The notes beneath the pieces are model-generated. The model did not search any database and had not been told where the DNA came from. It was given only the letters and a program-made list of their open reading frames with translations. A DNA stretch of 64,000 nt, taken from assembly GCA_964016885.1 (NCBI GenBank), contig OZ024747.1, positions 23,188,001 through 23,252,000 of the forward strand. Reading direction: 5' to 3'. Position 1 is the first letter of the stretch, and the number at the start of each line of letters is the position of its first letter. This stretch comes from Eledone cirrhosa. Lineage: Eukaryota. This document shows, piece by piece, positions 5,597-63,456 of this stretch. The translations under genes and the position numbers were made by a program.

Positions 5597-5913
5597 CCAC
5601 CATTGTTTTATAGCTGGATGTCTTTCCTGACACCAACCCTTTTGTCACATCTTATGACACAGGGATATGGTATACCTATTCTAAAAAAAACAGGATAAAG
5701 AAATGAAATAATTTCATTTGACAGACTCAGTAGAGGGTCAGACAAAATGTCTTGTGGTATTTAGTTATGACTCTCTATGTTTTGAGTTCAAATCCTGTCA
5801 GTGTCGACTTTACTTTTTTTCCTCCAGGGTTTATAAAATAAAGTTCCAGTAAAATTTTATATGTCCTAATACCTGACCCTTCACCCATGCCCTTACACCC
5901 CAGCCCCCAATCT

Positions 5914-6652
5914 TCACTGTAAAGTGGTTGCTTTGGTGCCATGACAAAAGGTGCCCAGTCTATACTGTAAAGTGGTCATGTTGGTATCATGACAAAAAGC
6001 ACCCAGCCCACACAGTAAAGTGGTCATTATGGTGCCACGATAAAAGGAACCCAGTCCACACTGTAAAGTGGTCATTATGGTGCCACGATAAAAAACACCC
6101 AGCCCACACAGTAAAGTGGTCATTATGGTGCCACGATAAAAGGAACCCAGTCCACACTGTAAAGTGGTCATTATGGTGCCACGATAAAAAACACCCAGCC
6201 CACACAGTAAAGTGGTCATTATGGTGCCACGATAAAAGGAACCCAGTCCACACTGTAAAGTGGTCATTATGGTGCCACGATAAAAGGAACCCAGTCCACA
6301 CTGTAAAGTGGTCATTATGGTGCCACGATAAAAGGAACCCAGTCCACACTGTAAATTGGTCATTATGGTGCCACGATAAAAGGAACCCAGTCCACACTGT
6401 AAAGTGGTCATTATGGTGCCACGATAAAAGGAACCCAGTCCACACTGTAAAGTGGTCATGTAGTAGTCATGACAAAAAGCACCCAGCCCACACTGTAAAT
6501 GTAGTTGGCATTAGGAAATGCATCCAGCCGGAGAAACCTAACCAGAAATAGTCCTGTATGAGCAAGACACAGTCACCTGACTTATCTCAAATGGGACAAC
6601 TTGTCTAACCCATGCTAGCATTCAAAATGGATGTTAAATGATGATGATGATG
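5914..6652 (+). repeat. 45-bp minisatellite (~13 units) expanded inside a LINE-3'UTR/SINE-tail repeat ending in (GAT)n
   Basis: Unit CACTGTAAAGTGGTCATTATGGTGCCACGATAAAAGGAACCCAGTCCA-like, giving 15-aa periodic ORFs; the downstream part matches the 3' tails at 29790, 34710 and 38055. Confidence 0.9.
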
Positions 6653-8777: not shown

Positions 8778-8894
8778 AAAATAACAAGCAACGATATATA
8801 AGATCCAAATTGAAGAGATCATTGCGCCGAGTATCCTCATATTATTCCAATATCTACCCACCTGATTTTTCTACAGAGGACTCTTTACAAATTG
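8778..8894 (+). CDS. SULF-like gene exon (hydrophilic-domain region; (E)NNKQRYIRSKLKRSLRRVSSYYSNIYPPDFSTEDSLQI)
   Basis: ttttcag acceptor and G|gtaagt donor, 117 nt, phase 1-1, open frame that joins in phase to the 21069 exon; R-x-x-R motifs typical of the SULF furin-cleavage region; not recognisable by homology on its own. Confidence 0.65.
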
Positions 8895-21068: not shown

Positions 21069-21229
21069 ATTTCCCTTCTCAACAACAGCAACAAATGTGC
21101 AGAGTTCTGCCAAACAACACTATCGTTTGTGATCCTGTGTTATATGAGGAAATAGATATCTGGAAAAACCATAAAGACCATCTTGATACTTTAATTCAAA
21201 AATATCAGTTGACAATTAAGAATTTAAAG
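21069..21229 (+). CDS. SULF1: extracellular sulfatase (SULF1/2-like) exon: (D)FPSQQQQQMCRVLPNNTIVCDPVLYEEIDIWKNHKDHLDTLIQKYQLTIKNLK
   Basis: ttcttcag acceptor, AAG|gtttgt donor, phase 1-0; matches the SULF hydrophilic-domain motif C.ILPND.I.C...Y....WK.HK..ID..I..LQ..IKNL. Confidence 0.9.
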
Positions 21230-34218: not shown

Positions 34219-34379
34219 GATATACGTAAACATTTGAAGAAACAGAAGCCTGCTGAAGCAATATCCCCTCCTGTCCCTGTAGATAGCATGTTCTATCCTA
34301 GTACAGGCAGCTATGACAGAATTAATAGTGGTGCTTGTGACTGTAGCAGAACACAAACAGGTATCAGCATGACTAACAG
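34219..34379 (+). CDS. SULF1: SULF-like exon: DIRKHLKKQKPAEAISPPVPVDSMFYPSTGSYDRINSGACDCSRTQTGISMTN(R)
   Basis: ttttatag acceptor, AG|gtaggt donor, phase 0-2; continues IKNLK with DIRKHLKKQKP (cf. SULF EVRGHLKRRKP) and a CxC motif; absent from the ORF track. Confidence 0.88.
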
Positions 34380-35149: not shown

Positions 35150-35367
35150 GAAGTTAACTACAACAAAGTTTAATAGTTTGTTCAGTACAAATCAACCAAT
35201 TCTACCACCTTGGAAACGTTCACGGTATCACAAGAAGTTGTTTAAGCGTAAATTCAAACGTAAGTTTAAGCGTAACAGAAAAGATAGTAAACATGAATGC
35301 CGTGTTCCAAATATGAAGTGTTTTACACATGACAACGATCACTGGAAAACACCACCTTACTGGACCT
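35150..35367 (+). CDS. SULF1: SULF-like exon A: basic cluster plus [25 protein letters not shown]
   Basis: ttttttcag acceptor, T|gtaagt donor, phase 2-1; matches SULF C..PG..CFTHDN.HW.T.P.W preceded by a K/R-rich cluster. Confidence 0.93.
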
Positions 35368-36199
35368 GTAAGTAACTTTTAATTCTTATTCAAACACAAC
35401 CAGTCAAAACTTGATCATTGCATGCAACTCTTACTTCTGAAGGTATCTATTTTATTTCTGAAGTATTAAGAACTATTTTAGAAATACATTGACATTTTTT
35501 AATGGAACTTTAAATTGAAAAGAATTCAGAATCTTGTTTAGTATAAATATATGAAACTAGTTATGCCTATTTTTAATTATTTTTTTATTTCCATATTCCT
35601 ATAAATTGAACTAATTTGCATTGTAGTAAATGTATTTGTTCTTAATTATTTCTTTATTTTTATTGTTGTACTATTTAGTTCTACTTGATATATTTCTCTT
35701 CTTTAGTTTCTTTCTTTTGCTGCTCATGGAGAATTGCATGATGAGAGATCTCTATTCTCCACAGTTGCAAGCCTTGTCATGGCCCTGCTTCTAGGCCAAT
35801 AGTGTAAAAATCAAATTTTAACTCTCAATAACATGTAAATGTTAAACTATAATACTATAGTATTATATTATAAGGTGTCAATGGCTAGGGTCAATCACTC
35901 AACCATGTGAACATTTTGTTCAACTTACACTTGCCTATTATGGACTTCTACTTTTTTCCTTTAATTTGTTTTGCTCTCTATAATACTTTCATCATTTCTG
36001 TAGTGGCAGTAAGGTTGCTAATCTCACATGCCATCCCTCCCCCCTTAACCTAATGTTTTGAAATCTGTAACCCTGAATAGGGGCCTATTCCAAGAGTACT
36101 ATCAGCTGGGACCAGCTGAGCCTGGGATTCAAGGTATTCCACTATATTTACAAGTGAAACAATACATAATGATATGTCAACTATTGAAATAATGTTACT

Positions 36200-36406
36200 T
36201 TAACCCTTTAGCATTTAAACTGGCCGTATCCACCCAAAATTCTCTTACCTCTCTCTGTTAAAACCAGCTGTAAATGACCGCCTATACTGATGTTAAGGTA
36301 TTCTTCTCAAAATAAATATCAAAATCTCATAGATTCGATATTATGTGAGATAAAGCCTTTACCATGAAAATACAATAGTAATTAAATGTAAATGCTAAAG
36401 AGTTAA
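36200..36406. mobile_element. TTAA-flanked MITE family A copy
   Basis: Same TIRs and internal sequence. Confidence 0.75.
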
Positions 36407-37593
36407 ATCATTTCCCTCTATTTTGAAAGTTACTGGCGCTTCATCCAGCAGTAGAATGAAAACGACTGTTTATAGTAATTGTATAAGTCTCTGCTGTTAC
36501 TATGTCTCAGCAGTTACTATAAGTCTCAGCAGTTACTATAAACAGACATCACATTGTTGGCTTCATTGTATATCCTACATTATTTATTGGGGCATATTAA
36601 AATAAATATTTTTAGACAACTTTAATTTACACATACAAATATATTTAGAATTCCGAATTAATTTCAGATTGACAATTTAGTTACTACATATTTCTCTCCA
36701 GTTGTTTCTATATATAGAAATACTTAATAGAATGTTTTAGTTATATTTCACATCTTCTATACACACAATCATCCACACACACATCTTCCATCCATAGCCA
36801 CACACTCATCATGCATTCATAGACACAAACACACATAATACACTCCCAGATGTATGCATCATTTTTGCAGCTGGTTGGGTTGATAGATTGGTCATCTGGC
36901 CAACGGATCAATGCCTCCATATTCTGTCTTTAAAACTATGCTCTGTACTTTACAGAATACTCCAACATCCATAGCCCACAGCTATAATTCTATTCCTTAT
37001 TGATGCTGCTGCCTATTATAAGTATTTGAAAAAACATTATTAAAACAATGTTTTACAACTAAACTAGAATGCTCTCCCTGAAACCAATTTCTGCATTAAA
37101 GCTGTTAGTTTTCCATTCCCTATTTTAAAGATTTATATAGTTTGCATAAAAATGTATTGTCCAATTGTTGTTTTCCCTATCTCTTAACATCCTGTAATGA
37201 TTTAGCCAAAAATATCTAAAAAATGGATTTGTTAACACAGATGTTTATAGTATATTTACTGGTGGACAGATTAATGTGATGCAGTCATAGCAATGTTTTG
37301 AACTTTTCAAGCTAATGTTGTTTCCTGTGGGATAGAACAATAAGAGTTAACTTCCCTATATTTTATATTTATTCTGATACCAATAATTTTTAGTGTTCCT
37401 CGCTCTCCACTCTCTTTCTTTTATTTTTAAAGTTTGAAACAATAACAATTATTTTGGTTTAAAGATTAGACTATATCTTTTTTTTTAAACTCTATTCCCT
37501 TCTTTGTCCAAAATGATTTTATTGGAAACCTCCACTTCAGTTTAAATAAATATTGGCAGGTTTACACGTATAATATAAGGTCAGTTATATTGA

Positions 37594-37850
37594 GGTCTAA
37601 AGTCTGTCTTAAGCCAGAAGGCTCGTTAGGCTGGTGCTTATCCCGGTTTCATGACATGAAGTGACTGAGAGTACAAGATTCCCCACTGGACAGGACACTA
37701 GTCCATTACAGGGTTAAACCTCCAGCTATTGCTGGTACTCATTTACAGCTGAGTATACTGAAGCCACATGAAATGAAGTGTTTTGCTCAAGAACACAACA
37801 TGCAACCCAACCCAGGAATCGAACCCACAACATTAGGCCACACACCTCCA
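37594..37850 (-). mobile_element. second tRNA-derived SINE family (related copy at ~43040-43280)
   Basis: Minus-strand head with GGTTCGATTCC B-box; shared GTCTAAAGTCTGTCTTAAGCCAGAAGGCT end with the 43040 copy. Confidence 0.7.
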
Positions 37851-38054
37851 CAATTTATGAGAGGGTTACTTAAAATGAATCACCTGCTAGGAAGGACAAA
37901 TCCAAAGCTTTATATTTTGTAATCAGCATATGACAGGTGTTTTGTAAAATTACTATTTTCAAATATTCACCTAACCACATTGCCACTTTTGTCTAGCTAT
38001 TTCTAACCATTAATGATCTTGTTTACTTAAGTGGGGAATATCAATACATATAAT

Positions 38055-38440
38055 GTAAGGCGATGGCACAAGACCGAGACCTCTAGCAGTACGCAGTAAT
38101 ACAGAAGACCCGATTTCCCATGGGTACAAGATGAAGCTGAAGCATATAGACAATATGCTTCCACTCCCTCCCACTGCAAAGTGGTTGTGGAGGTGTCATG
38201 ACAGAAAAGCACCCAGCCCACACTGTAAAGTGGTCGTGTAGGTGCCACGGAAAAAAAGCACCCAGTACTCACTGTAAATGAGGTTGGTGTTAGGAAGTGC
38301 ATCCAGCTGTAGAAATCAAGCCAGAATCAGTTCTGTATGAGCAAGATATTGTCACTTGACCTGGCATTGCCCACAACAGGACAACCCATCTAACCCATGC
38401 TAGTGTGGAAGAATGGGCGTAAAACAGTGAAGATGATGAT
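38055..38440 (+). mobile_element. RTE LINE 3' end/3'UTR copy
   Basis: Reverse complement of ~29790-30125. Confidence 0.8.
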
Positions 38441-38657
38441 AACTCAGACATTTGATTCAAGGAAATACCAAATATTTATTTTTATAATGGTACTGGAAAT
38501 ATAAAATATTAGGTGGAAGGTTCTTTTCTTTTTATATTCTATATGTAATTGTTAGCTAAAGTTATGATTTCAGTATAAATAAAATATGGTCTTTCTTCAG
38601 TGAATGTCAAATGACCATCAGCAATTTCACTGGTAAATATTGAATTTGAGTGTAAAC

Positions 38658-38840
38658 TATAATTGTTTCTACTTTTGGCACAAGGCCAGCAATTAATCAG
38701 GGTATTACTGGTACTTTATTTTATTGACCCTGTAAGGATGAAAGGCAAAGTTAACCTCGGCAGGATTTGAACTCAGATCATAAAGGGAGGTAACTCTATG
38801 CTTCAAAGCATGGCGTCCGACCCCCTTCACCAGTTCAGCA
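38658..38840 (-). mobile_element. tRNA-derived SINE (main family)
   Basis: Reverse complement of the 59931 element. Confidence 0.8.
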
Positions 38841-39190
38841 AAACTTTATATCATTAAATCTGAACACTGATCCAGAAGGATCTCAGATTAATGAATAATA
38901 AATACATTGCTGTTTTTCTTAGCAACTTTCAATGTTTGTGTTTAGTTGAAATGAAATCAAACAAATCCACAACTTTCCACTAGATTAGATTGTTTACTTT
39001 GCACATATTTAAAAACAAGTTACATTCAAACACTAATGAATATGATTCACTCAATTTGAACACTGTTTGTATATCTACATACTAGAACATATTTAGAAAT
39101 ATGTATATATGTACACCATTATGTGTGTATACACACACCCACACATATTTATGTATATATATCTACATAAGTGTATATGTATATATGTAT

Positions 39191-40217
39191 ATACAAAGTT
39201 TGTCCTAAAAGTAAGGGGACTGGTTTTCCTATGTACAACATGGTAATGCAGCACCTCATTGATATATATATCACATGGCTTAGTGGTTAGAGCATTGGCC
39301 TTGCAATCGAAAGGTTGTGAGTTCAATTCTCAGACCAGGTGATGTGTTGTTTCCTTGAGCAAGACACTTTATTTCACATTGCTCCAGTTTACTCAGCTGT
39401 GTAGAAATGAGATGATAGGACTGGGGTCCATATCACTCCACTGCAAAGTGGTCGTGGAGGTGCCACGGCAAAAAAGCACACAGCACTCACTGTAAATGAG
39501 GTTGGTGTTAGGAAGGGCATCCAGCTGTAGAAATCAAGCCAGAATTAATTCCCATCCCACCCTTGCAAGCAGGGAAAAGCGAACGTAAAATGATGATGAT
39601 GATGATATATATATATATCGTCATCATCATCATCATTTTACGTCCGCTTTTCCCTGCTTGCAAGGGTGGGATGGGAATTAATTCTGGCTTGATTTCTACA
39701 GCTGGATGCCCTTCCTAACACCAACCTCATTTACAGTGAGTGCTGTGTGCTTTTTTGCCGTGGCACCTCCACGACCACTTTGCAGTGGAGTGATATGGAC
39801 CCCAGTCCTATCATCTCATTTCTAAAGCTGAGTAAACTGGAGCAATGTGAAATAAAGAGTCTTGCTCAAGGAAACAACACATCACCTGGTCTGAGAATTG
39901 AACTCACAACCTTTCGATTGCAAGGCCAATGCTCTAACCACTAAGCCATATGCCTCCATATATATATATATATGTATAAGGCATGTTGGTTATGACCTTG
40001 GCTGCATGTACATACATGTTTCAATATGATCGATTGAGTCAGTCATAAGTTATTGCTGTTTATGTACAGACATATTTATAACTTCTGTTACGTTTGCCAT
40101 GCAGGAAAATATCAAACAATGGTATGCAATCAAATTTTGTGTAAAACTCAACAAATTTGCCCCCGAAACATTTAATTCTTTAACACAAGCTTATGGAAAG
40201 GCCACTCTACTGAGAAG
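39191..40217 (+). mobile_element. mariner transposon 5' remnant interrupted by a SINE palindrome
   Basis: TA-starting TIR-like end (TACAAAGTTTGTCCTAAAAGTAAG) and 40099 ORF QWYAIKFCVKLNKFAPETFNSLTQAYG resembling the mariner transposase N-terminal HTH (QR.AIKF.V.L.K...ET...L..AYG). Confidence 0.7.
39275..39957. repeat. ~680-bp palindrome of two tail-to-tail chimeric tRNA-SINE copies
   Basis: Arms of ~335 bp are reverse complements with only a few differences, joined by (GAT)n-(AT)n-(ATC)n; the head has A-box TGGCTTAGTGG and B-box GAGTTCAATTC. Confidence 0.92.
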
Positions 40218-40371
40218 TGTAGGTTTTAAACCGGCTGTACTCGGCCAGAATTCTCTCGCCTCTTTCTGTTCAAACTGGTGTAGTACTGGGTTTTTATGAT
40301 ATTGATGAAAGTCAATAGTTGAATTTTTCTTGTGATGTTAGTTTGAGGACATTACGTTTTGGTTAGTAGCC

Positions 40372-41480
40372 CAGTACCTCAGCTATGTAGACAGTACCTC
40401 AGCTATGTAGACAGTAGCTCAGCTATGTAGACAGTAGTTCAGCTATGTAGACAGTAGCTCAGCTATGTAGACAGTCCCTCAGCTAAGTAGTACCTCAGTT
40501 ACGTAGACAGTAGTTCAGCTATGTAGACAGTAGCTCAGCTAAGTAGACAGTACCTCAGCTATGTAGACAGTAGCTCAGCTATGTAGACAGTACCTCAGCT
40601 ATGTAGACAGTACCTCAGCTATGTAGACAGTAGCTCAGCTATGTAGACAGTAGCTCAGCTATGTAGACAGTAGCTCAGCTATGTAGACAGTAGCTCAGCT
40701 ATGTAGACAGTAGTTCAGCTATGTAGACAGTAGCTCAGCTATGTAGACAGTAGCTCAGCTATGTAGACAGTAGTTCAGCTATGTAGACAGTAGCTCAGCT
40801 ATGTAGACAGTCCCTCAGCTAAGTAGTACCTCAGTTACGTAGACAGTAGCTCAGCTATGTAGACAGTAGCTCAGCTATATAGACAGTCCCTCAGCTAAGT
40901 AGAAGTAGCTCAGCTATGTAGACAGTAGCTCAGTTACGTAGACAGTAGCTCAGCTATGTAGACAGTCCCTCAGCTAAGTAGACAGTAGCTCAGCTATGTA
41001 GATAGTACCTCAGCTAAGTAGACAGTAGCTCAGCTATGTAGACAGTAGCTCAGCTATTTAGACAGTACCTCAGCTATGTAGACAGTAGCTCAGTTATGTA
41101 GACAGTACCTCAGCTATGTAGACAGTAGCTCAGCTATATAGACAGTCCCTCAGCTAAGTAGACAGTAGCTCAGCTATGTAGACAGTAGCTCAGCTATGTA
41201 GACAGTACCTCAGCTATTTAGACAGTAGCTCAGTTATGTAGACAGTAGTTCAGCTATGTAGACAGTACCTCAGCTATTTAGACAGTCCCTCAGCTAAGTA
41301 GACAGTACCTCAGCTATGTAGACAGTCCCTCAGCTATGTAGACTACCTGAGCTATTTAGACAGTCCCTCAGCTATGTAGACAGTCCCTCAGCTATGTAGA
41401 CAGTACCTCAGCTATGTAGACAGTACCTCAGCTATCTAGATAACACCTAAGCTGTGTAGACAACACCTTAACTATCTAGA
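40372..41480. repeat. 20-bp minisatellite (~55 units, CAGTAGCTCAGCTATGTAGA)
   Basis: The 20-bp period is directly visible in column alignment. Confidence 0.97.
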
Positions 41481-43686
41481 TGACTCATCTTTTTTATTTC
41501 ACTTGAAAATATTATAAGCCCAGTTGTTTATTATATTGCCCCCCACAAAAAAAAACACATACTCACAAAAAAAAAAAACAGCCAAACACATTTCATTGTA
41601 TATAGTTAGATATTGGATAGTGGGAAACCAACATTTTTAAAATTTCAATCTCAGTTTATAAAGAGGATGATACTTCAAGCAGAGCGTAAGCTATATCCAA
41701 TATATTTCAATATACAATGCATTCACTATGGTTGTTACTTACTCAAGCAAAAGCGACTATGAAGAAATGTGATATTTTATAGTTGTTGTTAATCTATGTT
41801 CTGTATTGTATGTTTTTATAGCTTTACAAATTGGTGGCCATTATTATGAATCCCAAATATATTCAATACAGATTCATAATGGTTGAATAGGCACGATATC
41901 ACTCTCTTACTTCATGGTATGTGCTTTTGTATTTGGTCAAATAAGGGCAGTGGATTGGTAGTACCAGTAAAGTATCTGACAAAATGTTTTCTAATATTTA
42001 GTTACGCCTTTCTATGTTCTCAGTTCAAGTCCTGCCAAGATCAACTTTGCTTTTCATCCTTCAATAATTCCAGGGTCAATAATTACCCCCCTGAAATTGC
42101 TGGCCTTGTGCCTAAATTAAAAAATCATTATAAAGGGTGGTGGGCTGGTAGAATTGGTAGAGTATCGGACATAATACTTCATAGCATTCAGTTATGGCTT
42201 TCTATGTTTTGAGTTCAAGTCACACCAAGGTCAACTTTGCTTTTCATTCTTCTGAGGTCGATTAAATAAAGTACCAGTTAAATACTGAGGAGGATATAAT
42301 TGATTTTCCTCTTATCCTTAATTGCTCGCCTTGTACCAATTTTAGAAAGAATTATTATGAAACCCAAATATAGTCAATAGAGATTCATAATAGTCAAGTA
42401 GGTATCATATCACTCACTCACTTCATGGTATGTGCTTTTGTACCATGTCTCTGTGTAAGGTAATAAATTCCTTGCTTTTACTTGCTAGCTTTGTTATAAG
42501 AAACACTTCTTTATAGGAAATTATACAAGCTTAAATTATCCAGGAATGAGGTTTTCATTTCTCCCAAACAAAGCATATAATGTTTGTAAAGTTCTATTAA
42601 CTTTGAAAATTTATTCATATTAATATGTCTACCCCTAACTTTGTGTGGCTTTGTGGTAGGGGGTGTTCCACTCATGATCATAAGGTTGTGACCAGGTAGC
42701 ACATTGTGTCCTTGAGAAAGATGCTTTACCTCATATTCATTCGGTTGGCACAAATGAATTGTACCTGTAAATTCAAGAAGCTAACCTTGTCACAGATTGT
42801 GTCACACTGAATCTTCCTGAGAACTATGCTAAGGATGCATGTATCTGCGTAATACTTAAACATTCACATGTTAATTTCAAAAGCAGGCAGTTCTGTTGAT
42901 TGAATCAACTGGAGAACTTGTCATGGAAATGAAGGAGGTCCTACACACACAACATCGTCTGACACACTAACATAAACATTAACACATATACTTACTGTTA
43001 TCTACAATATAACCTTATTTTTTGTATTTACCCAGTCTAGTCTAAAGTCTGTCTTAAGCCAGAAGGCTGCTCATTTGGCCAGTGCTTATCCCGGTTTCAT
43101 GGCATGAAGCGACTGAGAGTACAAGACTCCCCCTCCTCTCTGGACAGGACGCCAGTCCATTGCACGGTTAAACTTGGGCAATGTGAAATGAAGTGTTTTG
43201 CTCAAGAACACAACACGCAACCCTGAAATTGAACCCACAGCATTATGATCGTAAGTCCAACATCCTTACCACTAGGCCAGGAAAGCATCCAGCCATAGAA
43301 AACCTGCTAAACAATGGGTTAGGAGGGCTCTTCAGCTGTGTCAAAAACATGATAACCTCCCTAATGTTGGTGTCACAATAAAATGCCCTCAGTAGTGCAC
43401 CGGGTAGTATGTAAGCCACAGCCCACCAGCCTGTCTAAGCACTTGGTAACGTGTAGGAATATAAGCAAGATGCAAGGTCCTGGCCCACCATGAAGCCAGT
43501 GCCTCTGTTTTGGGTAGCAGATGTTTTGAGTAAACGACGATGATGATGATGATCTGCTATCCATTGCACTGCTCATCAGATAGATATTGCCTCACAAAAT
43601 CCTCAATTCAACTATTTCTCAACACACACACACACACCACACCACACCACACCACACCACACCACACCACACCACACCACACCACA

Positions 43687-43726
<40 letters not shown>

Positions 43727-44456
43727 CATGTATGTATATGCCATACTAGCTCATTCATGTATTTATACATTTAACAAAGGGCTATGAGTATAAATCAATG
43801 CAAATTAACAGTTGTTCCACCCACTATATTAGGATTTTATTAACACTTCTCTCTATTCTACTGATCTGCAAGAAGCCGGCTTAATGTTGATATAATCTGC
43901 TCTAGGGTTCAAATAGAGTTAACCCTGAATTAAATTGTATCAGCTGTCAGGTAGTTTAAATCATATGTTGTTACACTTAGTACTTTTTCTCATTAACACT
44001 GTTTATTTTAGATGTTTACAAAACTAGCATTTCATCTTTCTTTCTTTCTTCTTCTTTTCCTTTTCTTCTTTTCCTTCTTCTTTTCCTTCTTCTTCTTTTC
44101 CTTTTTTCTTTTCCTTTTTCCTTTTTTCTTTTCCTTTTTTCTTTTCCTTTTTCTTCTTCTCCCTCCTCCCCATCCACCACAATATTATCCCTATATTTGC
44201 AAGGTGCCATTCTCTTTGAGCCATAAGTTAAAAAATAATTAATAAATGTAAACACCTTTGTATCTTTCCTGCACACTGCATGCATGTATAAGCTGAGTTC
44301 TCTTGTGCTACATGTTAAATAAACATATATTCAGAACAGTCACACATACACGTGTGTTTATGTTGAGCCATTACTAACTGTTATGTAGTTGCATGTGGTT
44401 ATGTGAGAAATATTTTACACTATGTCTATATGTATATATACATACACACATATGTA

Positions 44457-44545
<89 letters not shown>

Positions 44546-44849
44546 TTCTCTCTCCAAATACACACACATTTGTGTGTTTGTGTAAAAAAAAAATAGAATC
44601 CAAGAAAAATAGTAGTGGGGAAAAGGATTATTCCATGCCAAAATATGACCCCCACTTCATTCTTAGAAGTTTTCCTATTCCAGGATAGGGAACATCAATA
44701 TAACCCAGACTCATCCCCATGATACACTTGGGAAATTAGGAGCTGTTTACATTTAATTTAGTCATTTAACATCTTGGCTGCTTTGGTTTCCTTGGTTCTT
44801 AATCTCTCTGCTTTACTTTGAGTAATTCCATGGCGATTTCTAAATTATT

Positions 44850-46300
44850 GTAACTACATGCCACTAGTTTTATGGTAAATTCCTCCAATATCTTGTGTTA
44901 TGAAGTGGTAACATAAGTCAGTGAAGATAACAGTTTTTGAGCCATTGTGTATTTTAAGAATGATTGAATTCTGTCCTAGTTTGAGAAGCTTTTTTTTTTG
45001 TTTGCAACTGAAGCTGCAGGGGTGATCAGAAAAAGTTGAAATAGTCTAACAGTTTGAGACATAGCAGACAAGAAACCGAGGAATAACGTTAAAATAGCAT
45101 TGTTTGTTTTATACCTGTTAATACCATTGTTGTTGTTCATTTACTTAAACAAATTTACTAAAGATTTGTAATCAAAGATATTTGGATATTTCTGCTGCAA
45201 AGTGTTTATATGTTGCATAGTTTACACAGTTCTGGGTTTATAGCAGCACCTTGTGCCACACAGTGATGGAATGTTGATATTAAAATCTCTACAAACACTT
45301 TTCTGCTTTGTACTCAAAAATGTAAATTTACTAAAGCTGCATACATGAAAAATAAAGAAAAAAAAAGAAAGAAAAAATAACTCCATTAACTTTCTCAGCA
45401 CTTCAACTCAAAACTAAGTTAGATTTATGTGCATAACAATGAATGAAATCTCTATACTTAAACCCTTTCTCCTTCAATTTTGTTTGTACTCCATTTTGTT
45501 CACCTGCCAACACTACTGCTTCATCATATGTTTGGTTAAACAATTTAATTTTAGCATCATGAAAGGAGTTTAAAACATTTTCTATCACATCAGCTAACCA
45601 TGTTGCACTTTTATCATTACTTACATTATAAAATCCTAAAAATCTCTCATTTATTTTGCATCTAGTTACATACCTGATGATAATAGAAAGCTGGGCATGC
45701 ATTGCATAGTCAGTAGTTTTGTCTGCTTACACTTTCAACTTCAGTTCAAGTTACATCAGCTATTACATCATCAATTACAAATATAATATCATTTTGTATT
45801 GCACTTGAAATTCCTGAAAAATGATCCTTTTTAGGTAGAAGGTTTTGATGCAAAGCAATACAATAACTCACAATAATTATCTTTGTTGAGGGTTATCTTT
45901 TCCTTCATCATGTTCAGACAATGGCAGTTCTTATTTGCAAAGATATAATAGAGTATTTATTGTTTGTTATCTAATTTGTTATGCTGTTCTTTTTCAAACC
46001 TTGCAGATTCACTAATGACAGTTATTATGTCACACACACCAAACGTTCCTTAAGTATTTGTAATTATTTAAATGACTCATAGATTTAGAACAATGTTTGC
46101 AGCCAGTCAAAATATGTTTAAAATTGTTATAACCTCCATCAGTTCAAAATTAACCTGGTTTGGACTGAAAAATCAATCATGATGAAGAGTATAGTTTTTC
46201 TTCTGATGTACTTATGCACAACCAACCAATCTGTTCAAACTATCTGATTTGAAATAAATGCATGGCCTCTTTAGTTTTCAGTAGAAGAGTATGGCAGCTT
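44850..46300 (-). mobile_element. decayed hAT-superfamily transposase (ZMYM1/DUF4371-like)
   Basis: QLSIIIRYV...ERFLGF...QTYD.A.V..G..NGVQ...FIHCYAH..NLVL motifs in ORF 45403-45702; flanks frameshifted, boundaries approximate. Confidence 0.8.
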
Positions 46301-46495
46301 GGTTTGATAATAGCCTAGCATTCTCACATGGTTACTGAGGTAGCTGTGACATGATCACAGCTTAAAACACCCATAATAAGATCCATGTATATTGTGTATG
46401 CCTTTATATACACCTCTTATTAATATATGTATATGTTTCTTGCTTTTCAGCAATAGTCCTCTGTCCATCATTGTATTTTTCTCCATTGTCGTTAA

Positions 46496-46556
<61 letters not shown>

Positions 46557-49500
46557 TATATGTATACATACATATATATATCAAAAGTGTTAAAATGCAA
46601 CTACAAAACCAAACAATACATAAAAAAAGCTATTAGCACCACCAGCATCACCATTATTGTCACTGCCTTCACTACTAACACCACCATTCAGACTAGCGTA
46701 TCCTACACCACCACTACCACTGCCACTACTATCATCAAAATCAGCGCAGTTGCCAACAGCCCTAATACCATTACCAACAGCAAAACTAATCCTACCATCC
46801 CATAAACTTGCCAAAGAAAGGATCAAGAGGACTCTTCGGTTGTGTGAAACATATGACAACCTCCCTAGTGCTGGTGCCACAATAAAACACCCAGTGCACT
46901 CTGTAGTGTGCCAGAATGTATGTAAACAAGATGTGACCCCCTGGCTCATTCTGATTTAGTATTGACTTCACCTGTGACAACCTATCCAACCCTTGTTAGT
47001 GGGGAGAATGGATGTTAAATGATGATGATTATAATAATGTTGATGATGATGATGATCTGTGTATATATATATATATATACATGTATAGGTAGATATAACT
47101 GCCATTTTCTCCCTAAATAAAAACATAAACTGTTGTTTGTCTGTTTAATAATGAATTGTTTCTACTTCTGGCTCAAGGCCAGCAATTACCCCAGTATATT
47201 ACTGATACTTTATTTTATCGACCCCATAAGGATGGAAGGCAAAGTTAATCTCGGTGGGATTGGAACTCAGAACGTAAAGGGCCATAACTCCAGGCTGCAA
47301 AGCATAGTGTCTGATACTTTACCGATAGTGCCAATCCACCGCCTGTCTGTTTAATAATTAATATAAGATTGAACATCAGTATGTAACAGTTCATCCATTT
47401 AACCAAATACTCTTGCTAAACAAATGTTCGAGAGGACCCTTCAGTCATATCAAGGACATGACAGCTGCTCTAGTGTTGATGATCTCCATGATAAACTCAC
47501 CCAGTACTTGCTGTAAAGTGGTTGGTGATAGGAAGGGCATCTAGCTGTAGAAAGCTTGCCAAACAAAGGGTTGGAAGGACCTTCAGTTGTATCAAAGACA
47601 TGACAACTTCCCCTGAGCACTCAGTAGAACATGTAACTGTACATAAGTGAATGTGAATGTGAGAACATGAGACTATACACTTACTGACTTAGTCTATGTA
47701 GACCCATCCAACCCTTGCTAGCAGGAAAAGTAGACATTTAAGTGGTGATGATGATGATGATGATGACATGTTCTTTCTGCCAATCTTCAAGTTCTTCCAA
47801 ACACCAACAAGAGTGTGATCCATACCTTTTCCTACATTTAGGAAAACTGTTTCAACTGCAGCAGTCCTGACAAAGAACACAGCCTTCAACTCAATGAGAA
47901 AATCAAACGTCCCCAACCAACGGGATAACATTTACCCAGCACCACAACCCATGCAATAACATCATTGAAACTATGAAGGATGCATTAGTATATCTCACAA
48001 CTTACCATGCTTTTTTTTGGTCTTTTGTTAAAAGGATCTCTACCATCTTTATGGAATCCCCCTTTCCTTCACTTTTTAACCATGAGAAGGAAGCTCTCTA
48101 TGTGATCAGTAATCCCTCCTTGAGTGCAACCTTTTAATTCAACAGTACCAGTTGTATACACCCCCATTCAATGCCACTATTATTGATTTCATGTTACAGA
48201 TACTCACTTTCTTTCTCTTTCCGTCTGCCACCCTACACTTTTTATTAACACTTTAACATCCTGTAATGATTTAACAAAAACTATTTAAAAACAGGTTTGT
48301 CAATTCAAATGTTAATAGTATCTTTACTAGGGGATAGATTGTGAACATTTGCAGTATTAGAGTAAAGACTTTAATATAGTGCTGTTTTATACATTGTGAG
48401 AATATCTTGCTAATGTGGTTTCAATCAGTACAGGATGTCAAAAGTTAAGCATTGTTTGCCATTTCTCTTCCAAAGTATCAGTCTTACAGAATTCTTATGA
48501 ATTTCTATATTAGTCAAACTTCACATTAATGATCTCGGTTTTTACTAAAATTGAAGTTTCAGTTCCCCTTTTCTCACAAAATCAACAATTCAATGAAATA
48601 AGCCAAAACATATCCTTCCTCAACACCTTTAATGATATTCATACACTCTATCATGCTAGCACATTTTGTTGTTTGATTTCTATAGTGTAACACCAGTTGA
48701 AACAAATGTTAACCCTTTCGGTACTATATTTCTCATGAAATATATTGCTTATGTGTTTCAATTGATTTTGAAAATAACCAAACATTTGGAGGAATTTAAT
48801 AAAATAACTTAGTTTTTCATTAGTAAGCTGGTATTTAGAACATTAGTTAAGAAAAATGTTAAAAATAAGATTAAGATAAAAGGATTTAATATAAGTATAA
48901 ATATTTTAAAATTGTGCCAATGTTAGAAAGAATTATCAAAATAGTATTGTAACAATTTACAAAAGGTTCTTATGTCATATTAGGTTGGAAGATTTTAGTT
49001 TTTATTAAATTTTATTTTTTTGTATGGTCCTGTAACTACTGATGGAATGTAGGGGTGCTGTAGTAGTATATAGTGTTTCTTGGGCATTTTAAATCTGATG
49101 GAAACTATCCCTCTCAGATTTCTTCCAGAGAAGGATAGAAAGTAAGAGAGAGATACAGAGGAAGAATCGACCCCTTAACTAGACTGGTGCCTTTTTATCG
49201 ACCTCGAGAGGATGAAAGGCAAAGTTGACCTTGGTGGGATTTGAACTCAGAGAGCAGATAGTCAAAATGAATACCACAAAGTATTTTATCCAACGTTCTA
49301 ACGACTTTGCCAATTCACTGCCTCATTTAAATAGGAGCCCTTTAAAATGGGTGGTTTTGTTTGATAGAGCCAGAAGTTGTTCTGGGCTGGTTGTTATCAA
49401 AAGGGTTAAATGCAGTGGTCAAAGGTGGAGATATAAAGGCAATTCCTTTTAGGGATTAATTAAACCAAACAGTGGATTTAGTTAATTATATAGAAGCAAT

Positions 49501-49788
49501 TTTAGTAGATAATTAGTTGGATTTATCATTTGTTACAAACTACTGACTTACAAACAGATTAATCCCAATAAATTCAAATGAACTCACAAAATGGTTTTTA
49601 GTGTATACTGGAGAAAGAGAGAGAGAGAGATTAAATAATGGTTACTACTGGAAAGCTTAAAAACAAATCCTTTATTGTTTGCTTTCTTTTTCATCCACCA
49701 ATGGCATTTTTCTTTTCTTTTTGTTAATTTATTTGGTTTGTATAATTGTAAGAAAAAGGATTGGAAAATATAGGTGAAGGAATAGATA

Positions 49789-49984
49789 TGAGATTTGGCT
49801 GAAAAGTTCATATGCTGACCAAGATACTCTCATGGAATGATCAAATGAGGTTCATTTTCAACATAGTTCCTGGAAAAAAACAATGCAGTTATTAAGAAAA
49901 AGAGCTGAAATTGATGCATGCAAGTCTTCACAGCTCAGCATCAATACTTCATAGTCAGCTTATGAACTTTTCAGCCGATCCTCA
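49789..49984. mobile_element. Tc1/mariner-type MITE with ~30-bp TIRs (partial relative at ~34443-34530)
   Basis: TGAGATTTGGCTGAAAAGTTCATATGCTGAC ... GTCAGCTTATGAACTTTTCAGCCGATCCTCA. Confidence 0.75.
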
Positions 49985-50457
49985 AAGTTGTATTTAAGAA
50001 GATTGCTTTGGAATCACATGACTTGGGGTTTGATCCCAATGTGTGGCACTGTAACTCTTAACATCCTGTAATGATTTAGCAGAAAATATCTGAAAACAGT
50101 TTTGTTAATTCAAATGTTTAGAATATCTTTACTAGTGCACATATTGTTATATTAAAATAGGCAGAATTAGACTAAAGACTTTAATTTTTAGTGTGTGAAG
50201 CAGTCATAGCATTGTTTTATATTTTTTTATATTTCCTTGCAAGACATGAAAATTTAAGCAAGTGATATTGGGTTGATGAAAACCCATCATATATATAATA
50301 GTTGAGACAGTAAATAAAAAACAAAAAAACAACGTTGAAGCGAAGAGGCAGTACAAAATGTTAATATTAGTTTCACGCTCGCTTGAGAGTATATATATAT
50401 GCCAGCATGAAAATACAGCACTATATATATATATATATGCCCAGCATGAAAATCGCC

Positions 50458-50500
<43 letters not shown>

Positions 50501-51420
50501 CGATGAAATGCCTTGCAGTATTTGTACTTACTCTTTACATTCTGAGTTCAAACCCTTTTGAGGTCAACTTTGCCTTTTATCATTTTAGACTTGATAAAAT
50601 AAGTACCAGTCTAATATTGGGGAGTTAATATAATCAACCAGCTCCTCCAAAATCTAAGTCTTTGTGCCTATATAAGGACTTAATGAATGGTAGTGAGGAA
50701 GGGCAACTTTGGTAGAAGGTATTAAACTTAATAATATATTGAACTTTTGGAGTTTGCTAGACTACTTTGTGATCAACAATCTCATCCTACCATATATATC
50801 TCAGTTCATATAACAAAACTACTGGTCCAACTTAGAAGTCAAGATCCTTAAAATCTTGATTCTAATAATGATACATGTACAACAGGTTTCCTCTGGTAAC
50901 AATACAAATTGTTCAACTACCTGTTATTCCTTATCTTTACCACTTTTGATCAGAAAAAGTTTTTCATTTACAAAATCAAAATAGTATTTTTCTCACATAG
51001 ATAAATTTTTGTGTTAAACTATAGGATTCTCAACTAAGTTATTCCAGTTTCAAGTTCAGGTAATTTTTCTTATTGGTTGTTTTAGGCATGTTCAATATTT
51101 TGATCTGCTTCATTATGTTTTTAATATAATGATGATAATAAATTTTCTCTTATAGTCAGATGTTCATATGATTTCAAGTACTATATTCATTATGATTAGG
51201 TATATTTTCTAGTTTATCACTGACAGAACGACTTTCACCTTTTATTTAATATCATTTCAATTGCAATTGGGGCATGAAAGTTCATCTTATCACACCTCCC
51301 CCTCCATGCTTCCGTGACACACTCTAAAAATTAAACCTAAAGACTAAAGCAAAACATGACAAAATATATCCAATAATTTGCAAAATAAATTTTGGAAATA
51401 TTTTTTTATCTTCTTCCTAG

Positions 51421-51561
51421 TTACATCAAAGTTTAAGACACGGCATCGGACACGTTCAACTGAATATCTCTCTCAGCTTCATGGGATATCTTGTAAAAAA
51501 GATGGTATGGAATGTAGTATCATGGATAACGGCCACTGGAAAACGCCTCCATTTTGGACTT
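51421..51561 (+). CDS. SULF1: SULF-like exon B (diverged duplicate of exon A): TSKFKTRHRTRSTEYLSQLHGISCKKDGMECSIMDNGHWKTPPFWT
   Basis: Polypyrimidine tract and cctag acceptor, T|gtaagc donor at the same codon position as exon A, 141 nt, phase 1-1, no stops, conserved C-x5-C and DN.HWKTPP.WT. Confidence 0.85.
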
Positions 51562-61938: not shown

Positions 61939-62081
61939 ATGGCCCATTTTGTTTTTGTTCCAATGCCAATAACAATACATACTGGTGTATTCGAACAGTT
62001 AATGAAACCCACAACTTCCTCTATTGTGAATTTATTACTGGTTTTATCAGTTATTATAACATGCTTGAAGATCCATATCAG
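61939..62081 (+). CDS. SULF1: SULF-like exon: (Y)[47 protein letters not shown]
   Basis: ttctag acceptor, CAG|gtagag donor, phase 1-0; near-identical to the conserved SULF C-terminal [23 protein letters not shown] motif. Confidence 0.97.
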
Positions 62082-63338: not shown

Positions 63339-63456
63339 TTGAAGAATAGCATCCATGAAATAAATTATGGAGTATTACAACAACTACATGCCAATTTAGA
63401 AAAGCTCAGAAAATGCAAAGGTGCTAAGGAATGCAGTTATGATTATCTTGATGAAA
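63339..63456 (+). CDS. SULF1: SULF-like exon: LKNSIHEINYGVLQQLHANLEKLRKCKGAKECSYDYLDE
   Basis: tttcag acceptor, A|gtaagt donor, phase 0-1; matches SULF L.N.V......L.QLH..L..LR.C.G...C; no stop codon, so the gene continues past the window. Confidence 0.93.

Follow-up and report, generated by a model that had tools for sequence, protein, structure and literature searches.

The 64,000-nucleotide stretch of the Eledone cirrhosa genome analyzed here (assembly GCA_964016885.1, contig OZ024747.1, positions 23,188,001-23,252,000) is referred to as the window, and coordinates below are window positions. It contains, on the + strand, the 3′ half of a gene for Sulf, an extracellular heparan-sulfate 6-O-endosulfatase that removes sulfate from sugar chains at the cell surface. 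Within this gene, exon B (51421..51561) carries a diverged, partial copy of the module that ends exon A (35150..35367) and, judging from reading frames and orthologous gene models, is almost certainly a conserved cassette exon, rather than one member of an either/or pair with A. By orthology, E. cirrhosa would make both an A-only and an A+B form of the enzyme. The explanation offered for this arrangement has three parts: exon B is an optional partial duplicate, its core takes the single slot in the fold that core A would otherwise occupy, and the surface beside the active-site entrance is altered. Taken as a whole, this explanation is considered probable, if by a modest measure.

Exon A is 218 nucleotides long, opens after CAG, and closes at CCT/GTAAGT, while exon B is 141 nucleotides long, opens after TAG, and closes at CTT/GTAAGC. 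Both are open, and B has canonical splice sites and a length divisible by three. The two exons share the ending HWKTPP(Y/F)WT and the codon position of their phase-1 donor, as a sequence-only reading of this DNA had already noticed, together with the open frame and intact splice sites of B. A hidden Markov model (HMM) of the module core, built from 110 cores, scores 57.9 bits for A and 55.4 bits for B; among the 3,393 segments of the window in six frames, no other exceeds 9.4 bits. A search of the E. cirrhosa genome with B yielded two matches, namely B and A. The gap in HMM scores and the two genome matches argue that the likeness of A and B is not due to chance, and they bear out the original proposal of two diverged versions of one module at these positions. 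No third copy was found in the window (HMM, six frames) or in the genome search with B.

The duplication is only partial. Over 23 shared codons, 13 residues and 39 of 69 nucleotides are identical, and the recognizable copy is restricted to the 3′ ~25 codons; the long basic cluster of A has no copy in the 5′ half of B. The net charges of exons A and B are +17 and +4, respectively. Core A (35298..35363, +) reads C-x6-C-x2-H-DN-x-HW-x5-W and is of the ancestral type common to vertebrates and arthropods, with an H signature, whereas core B (51492..51557, +) reads C-x6-C-x2-M-DN-x-HW-x5-W, with an M signature. The spacing in both exons is thus C-x6-C-x3-DN-x-HW. A C-x5-C spacing, claimed in the sequence-only reading, was discarded, as that pattern matched neither exon.

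The frames of the surrounding exons indicate which choice is built into the gene. Exon P (34219..34379, +), immediately upstream of A, uses its main donor at 34379 (CAG/GTAGGT) to leave in phase 2, in frame into A. Exon A is entered in phase 2 and left in phase 1, exon B is entered and left in phase 1, and the shared downstream exon C (61939..62081, +) accepts phase 1 from either A or B. With the C-terminal helix exon D (63339..63456, +; recovered by tblastn) appended, P-A-C-D and P-A-B-C-D are both open, and P-B-C-D, spliced through the normal donor of P, stops at codon 59. These frames and phases point to a choice between including and skipping B after A.

Mutually exclusive exons are expected to be adjacent homologues that have the same entry and exit phases and never occur together. 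A and B are adjacent and homologous; their phases differ (2/1 and 1/1), and they do occur together in orthologues, both in 25 of 40 annotated models and in transcript-derived proteins from Logan. On the other hand, B has what is expected of a conserved cassette: symmetric phases, a length of 141 nucleotides, canonical sites, and both included and skipped forms in orthologues. The sequence-only reading had instead treated A and B as interchangeable alternatives, so that the long basic cluster would be present in one form and absent from the other. Such a B-only form requires a candidate phase-1 donor within exon P at 34360 (CAG/GTATCA), and the 34360>51421 junction that had been proposed is indeed in frame; the common donor phase of A and B is also compatible with alternative use. 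However, the donor consensus is GTRAGT, which GTATCA at 34360 fits worse than does GTAGGT at 34379. Moreover, none of the 40 models is B-only, A+B transcripts exist, and the proteins of oysters and Tubulanus that retain core B alone still carry a long basic cluster. Alternative use of A and B is accordingly regarded as very improbable. What survives of that proposal is that one Sulf gene gives two protein forms, although A is in both of them (A-only and A+B) and it is B that is optional.

The isoform counts come from a census of mollusc and annelid annotations, limited to the 12 species groups for which two or more models exist and an A+B form is among them (two Octopus, three Haliotis, two Patella, three Mytilus, Mizuhopecten, and Owenia). 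The 40 models comprise 25 A+B forms, 15 A-only forms, and no B-only forms, and an A-only model is also present in all 12 groups having A+B. Since no B-only model exists, the basic cluster of A is in every form. This undercuts the earlier suggestion of a high- and low-affinity isoform pair arising through cluster loss: the long cluster is retained in both, and the contribution of B is approximately +3 charge in cephalopods. At the level of annotation, the duplication is already on record, which by the sequence-only reading's own terms removes the novelty: in RefSeq/GenBank, the models for Octopus, Haliotis, Patella, Mytilus, Mizuhopecten, and Owenia include A+B and A-only forms.

More broadly, the 190 Sulf proteins examined divide into 39 with two cores and 151 with a single core. 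The top match to exon A is a 963-residue Logan protein with A and B in tandem, and its cluster includes RefSeq/GenBank models of O. vulgaris, O. sinensis, O. bimaculoides, and Argonauta. In Octopus, model X3 is model X1 minus exactly the 47 residues of B. Full-length Logan proteins of the A+B form occur on contigs of 3.2-4.3 kb (P0001, P0002, P0016, and P0022), and full-length A-only proteins occur on contigs of 2.9-3.5 kb (P0164 and P0048); on contigs of 3-4 kb, A+B is seen in cephalopod-like sequences and A-only in mussel- and scallop-like ones. If the genes concerned are comparable in size to that of E. cirrhosa, which spans >100 kb, contigs this short must represent spliced RNA. Further sampling with the Owenia region gave 14 matches and no new two-core taxon. 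A representative search with B gave 11 matches, of which nine were B-type exon fragments and two were unrelated repeat open reading frames that were dropped.

Several lines of evidence suggest that the duplication is ancient. The third residue past the second Cys is M in every unique second core (16 of 16). For the first cores it is H in 15 of 16, the exception being an extra B in Pinctada, and leave-one-out profiles assigned 15/16 and 15/15 cores correctly. In a tree of 97 unique 27-residue pieces, one branch with support of 98/96 separates 23 B-type rows from 74 A-type rows. The former include cephalopods, abalone, two snail-like proteins, bivalves, the annelid Owenia, and the nemertean Tubulanus, and the latter include vertebrates, arthropods, and amphioxus; Patella B, with its longer Cys spacing, lies outside the tree set. 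A duplication specific to octopuses was considered and rejected, given the B-type cores of snails, bivalves, Owenia, and a nemertean. A single duplication probably took place instead before molluscs, annelids, and nemerteans diverged, a split that dates to >500 million years ago.

Whether exon B has been under selection is best judged between orthologues. Silent differences between A and B, which the sequence-only reading took as a sign of selection, are real (6 of 10 identical degenerate codons), but they mostly reflect the age of the duplication. As a proof of selection they were rejected, for they make a poor test between paralogues so old, and conservation among orthologues appears to be the better evidence. 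For example, when E. cirrhosa is compared with two Logan cephalopod-like proteins, B is identical at 32/46 residues, A at 49/72, and exon P at 24-27/53, so that B is, by this comparison of sequences, as conserved as A and more conserved than P. Among 33 metagenome loci, a B core was found in 32 (L035 has none) and exon C also in 20, and the donor GT of B occupies the same codon position in 32/32 of the B cores. The ratio of nonsynonymous to synonymous differences (pN/pS) is 0.135 over 20 unique B cores (190 non-independent pairs), compared to 0.039 for exon C in these loci. No intact core A was found in the 33 metagenome loci, so this ratio measures B where B probably serves alone.

The fates of the two copies also vary among lineages. 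Both cores are intact wherever A-only models exist. Conversely, core A is decayed or missing and B is intact in Ostrea (4/4 models), Saccostrea (one model), Sinanodonta (2/2), Potamilus (2/2), and Tubulanus (4/4). A long basic cluster is kept in the oysters and in Tubulanus, and a shorter one in the unionids. Core A seems to have decayed where all models carry B, and gene models of both forms go with two intact cores. The last core is intact in 189/189 proteins and ends five residues before the C-x-C of exon C. The A-only proteins of Aplysia, Elysia, Littorina, Ruditapes, Mya, Mactra, and Capitella are known from single or few models and do not prove a loss of B. In Ruditapes, Mya, and Mactra (P0054, P0057, and P0067), the long basic cluster before core A is replaced by an acidic stretch with few basic residues.

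This pattern bears on the possibility that the cores are interchangeable and that skipping of B is tolerated noise, with isoforms equal in function. Lineages do manage with either core alone, a symmetric exon can be skipped without penalty, and the HW-x5-W end is nearly identical in both cores. Against such drift, however, both cores remain intact, with distinct and fixed H and M signatures, in cephalopods, abalones, limpets, mussels, scallop, and Owenia, and unused copies visibly decay in other lineages. Redundancy of this kind is judged quite improbable.

Re-duplication of B has been observed as well. In Mizuhopecten, the B copy of model X1 differs from that of model X2 (P0027 versus P0193), and Pinctada (P0024) has a decayed A followed by two tandem B cores. 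According to these models, exon B is duplicated again in scallop and pearl oyster, and the two scallop copies look mutually exclusive.

What inclusion of B does to the enzyme was approached through AlphaFold models of Octopus (O. vulgaris/sinensis) orthologues, one A-only (P0006, 84-row alignment) and one A+B (P0007, 85 rows), judged by the predicted local distance difference test (pLDDT) and secondary structure. In the A-only model, core A has a pLDDT of 70-85 and forms a strand at residues 757-762, and the helix of the basic cluster (725-749) ends just before the core. In the A+B model, residues 744-785 fall below a pLDDT of 50, with core A at 35-40 and without structure, and it is core B (pLDDT 66-74) that forms a strand, at 804-809 and in the same register as that of core A, preceded by a short helix at 788-795. 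Both predicted structures complete an S1 sulfatase fold, matching structure 5g2v with Z 37.2 and a root-mean-square deviation (rmsd) of 2.2 over 406 aligned residues (range 57-850) for the first model, and Z 35.7 and rmsd 2.4 over 405 aligned residues (range 57-897) for the second. No solved Sulf structure occurred among the best 60 of 73 sequence matches or among the fold matches listed. Two loops, 261-280 and 331-350, the latter with SDHG and KGK stretches, lose 16-31 pLDDT points in the A+B model, which hints that these catalytic loops lean on the module.

The models thus favor, with fair confidence, a slot swap in which core B docks in place of core A. The main competing view is that of an additive insertion, where core A is docked in both forms and B loops out as a small basic or disulfide-bonded appendage that contacts a second sugar, a protein, or a dimer partner. 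Consistent with an insertion, core A is as conserved in A+B species as elsewhere, B adds a net charge of about +2 to +4 in most species, and the A+B model, with B at only 66-74 and weakened catalytic loops, may be undecided. Yet the A+B model orders B and not A, B alone serves in the oysters, unionids, and Tubulanus where A has decayed, and an intact A with a decayed B insert is seen in 0/189 proteins. In addition, conservation of A in A+B species can be attributed to its use in the A-only form. An additive insertion is consequently viewed as unlikely, although less so than either drift or alternative exons.

Docking of core B in place of core A must itself be read with several points in mind that weigh against it. 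The structures are of Octopus orthologues, were built from a split alignment, and give B only moderate confidence (66-74). In the alignment, 56 of 85 rows are split, with the Cys half on A columns and the HW half on B; this does not favor B for the strand, yet it is a confounder. The link to an entrance helix in the human enzyme, discussed below, rests on another group's AlphaFold model. With respect to ancestry and selection, the tree has only 27 columns and a long Owenia B branch (1.22), and the pN/pS values are from non-independent pairs at loci where no intact core A was found. Finally, the census models are products of automatic annotation. A covariation screen between B-only lineages and the catalytic domain set 7 B-only rows against 13 A-only rows, and eight columns passed a loose cut (≤2/13), but it is uncontrolled and uncorrected for kinship, and was not used. 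Residue 282 of P0007 is K in 6/7 B-only and 6/10 A+B rows and P in 11/13 A-only rows, in the same uncontrolled comparison; it adjoins a loop that loses confidence in the A+B model.

The location of the module suggests how a swap could matter. One review (PMC3890690) describes the hydrophilic domain, with its C-terminal basic cluster, as needed for heparan sulfate (HS) recognition and surface localization, and the C-terminal region as glucosamine-6-sulfatase-like. According to PMC6237999, arylsulfatase activity requires no more than the catalytic and C-terminal domains, whereas these two are not enough for processive editing. An AlphaFold model of human Sulf-2 in PMC11259796 places residues 720-830 in the catalytic core and basic residues 702-713 on an entrance helix beside the active-site pocket; the same paper states that the human protein had no experimental structure as of 2024. 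The domain layout of Sulfs is outlined in bioRxiv 10.1101/2021.01.04.425218. In Sulf-2 of Tupaia, the first Cys of the core lies six residues after the basic run, and from this position the Cys/HW module can be inferred to open the 720-830 core piece of human Sulf-2.

Charge before the docked core would differ between forms. In 19 of 20 two-core proteins, the 20 residues upstream of the core carry +7 to +14 before A and +2 to +4 before B (+8 in Patella), with the Pinctada B-B pair as the exception; the values in cephalopods are +9 for core A and +3 for core B. As a whole, B adds approximately +2 to +4 in most of the 20 proteins, with a range of -1 to +8. An isoform difference at the basic region, as envisaged in the sequence-only reading, therefore survives in a structural version, with the segment before the docked module predicted to go from +9 to +3, while its simple version through cluster loss is not supported.

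The proposed mechanism is as follows. Depending on whether B is included or skipped after A, an A+B or an A-only enzyme would be made. In the short form, core A would form a strand and loop that lead straight into exon C, and the poly-basic helix would lie just ahead of them. In the long form, the one slot for the module in the catalytic core would go to core B rather than core A, the weakly basic linker and helix of B would precede the docked core at the active-site rim, and core A and its basic helix would be pushed 47 residues outward on a flexible tether. Across two-core proteins, inclusion of B would shift the poly-basic helix outward by 32-50 residues without removing it. Inclusion of B is likely, on these models, to change the surface beside the active-site entrance. 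The result would be a splice-controlled retuning of HS engagement, be it processivity, substrate preference, or surface retention, with the cluster retained. A measurable change in HS editing from inclusion of B is possible, with chances put somewhat below even. More tentative still is a broader proposal of a lophotrochozoan splice switch that would predate the divergence of molluscs and annelids. Two copies of the core module would vie for one slot, and inclusion of B would dock copy B, unlatch the poly-basic entrance helix from the active-site rim, and free the two Cys of A, to give two HS editors that differ in processivity or specificity; B would then have been repeatedly fixed (oysters, unionids, and a nemertean) or re-duplicated (scallop and pearl oyster).

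As for the locus itself, seven coding exons were recovered by tblastn with Octopus Sulf, all with AG/GT ends. Two lie upstream of exon P on the + strand, i.e., a second symmetric cassette exon of 39 codons in the hydrophilic domain (8778..8894; tblastn and phase analysis) and a hydrophilic-domain exon of the PF12548 region (21069..21229; tblastn). Exon A, the ancestral member of the pair, supplies the end of the hydrophilic domain and core A. Its poly-basic cluster (35214..35291, +; K22-K47 of the exon peptide), corresponding to the helix at 725-749 in the A-only model, is present in both isoforms, and 21 of the 72 residues encoded by A are K or R. Exon B encodes, in 47 codons, a short basic linker, a short predicted helix, and core B. 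Exon C (GPFCFC...NNNTYWC...) begins the C-terminal sheet of the sulfatase fold, and its three Cys are invariant in 85/85 aligned Sulfs.

By all features tested, namely a CxPSR motif, PF12548, the basic cluster, and a fold-completing C-terminal region, the E. cirrhosa gene is identifiable as Sulf. The CxPSR motif, which reads CCPSRS, lies ~38 kb upstream of the window, in an exon (L001) that shares contig and strand with the others and is 96% identical to the query. A second sulfatase with CCPSRS (L002; G000:C1:61128123-61128302, -) is 52% identical over 58 residues and is probably a lysosomal glucosamine-6-sulfatase-like paralogue. PF12548 scores 58 bits (cut-off of 25) in residues 603-662 of P0007, a region that the window exons match at 77-85%, and PF00884, PF12548, and PF16347 are all present in the Octopus orthologue. 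The nearest named proteins are octopod: exon C is identical to Octopus at 47/47 residues, exon A to octopod Sulf at 64-67/72, and exon B to octopods at 40-43/46.

The cassette exon at 8778-8894 carries a basic RSKLKRSLRR stretch, which we take to resemble a furin-type site. Octopus X2 models skip this exon, and Logan protein P0002 lacks it. Together with exon B it allows four combinations, all of which occur among O. vulgaris/sinensis models. Other features of the window are intronic. A tandem repeat at 5877-6548 (+) reads as a 224-residue open frame of 16-residue units, an open frame at 45726-45406 (-) appears to resemble a piece of a hAT-type transposase, and another at 30371-30042 (-) appears to resemble the C-terminal end of an RTE-type long interspersed nuclear element (LINE) protein.

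The gene can be set against known systems. Vertebrate SULF1/SULF2 and the single Sulf of invertebrates share the CxPSR motif, PF00884/PF12548/PF16347, the basic cluster, the Cys/HW module, and the C-terminal sheet. All vertebrate, arthropod, amphioxus, hemichordate, priapulid, and nematode Sulfs examined have one A-type core, whereas E. cirrhosa has an extra B-type core on a skippable exon. Sulf-1 homologs X1 and X3 of Octopus sinensis, O. vulgaris, and O. bimaculoides have the same two exons, with X1 as A+B and X3 as A-only, but are automatic models and differ from E. cirrhosa in the DN-x-HW of core B, where the residue encoded at 51531-51533 gives DNGHW in E. cirrhosa and DNDHW in the Octopus and Argonauta proteins.

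Tandem duplicated exons are also known from Dscam, tropomyosin, and FGFR IIIb/IIIc, where they are mutually exclusive. As in those genes, homologous exons of Sulf would offer alternative versions of one structural slot; unlike in those genes, A is constitutive and B optional in RNA, and any exclusivity would arise at protein folding. Splicing that yields Sulf with different signaling effects is described in PMC3890690 for quail QSulf-1B. QSulf-1B, however, is a shorter isoform, whereas exon B is an in-frame insertion of a duplicated core module that leaves the catalytic domain whole.

No published description of a duplicated Sulf exon, its age, or a slot swap was found, in a search that left most subscription journals outside. 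The isoforms are not new, being present in public automatic annotations. The novelty appears to lie in recognizing an old and partial duplicate of an exon, in its repeated takeover or re-duplication, and in the predicted one-slot swap. The claim is a limited one, in that the isoforms are already annotated and any functional difference between them is a proposal.

Within these bounds, the finding bears on how the basic helix and C-terminal region of Sulf couple sugar-chain binding to catalysis. The A+B and A-only forms make up a natural comparison, being a single in-frame module apart at that point, the B-only lineages are natural swaps, and two constructs make the coupling question testable. 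The gene also offers a clear example in which a partially duplicated exon may be mutually exclusive in the fold, not in RNA, and has been kept since the mollusc-annelid-nemertean split.

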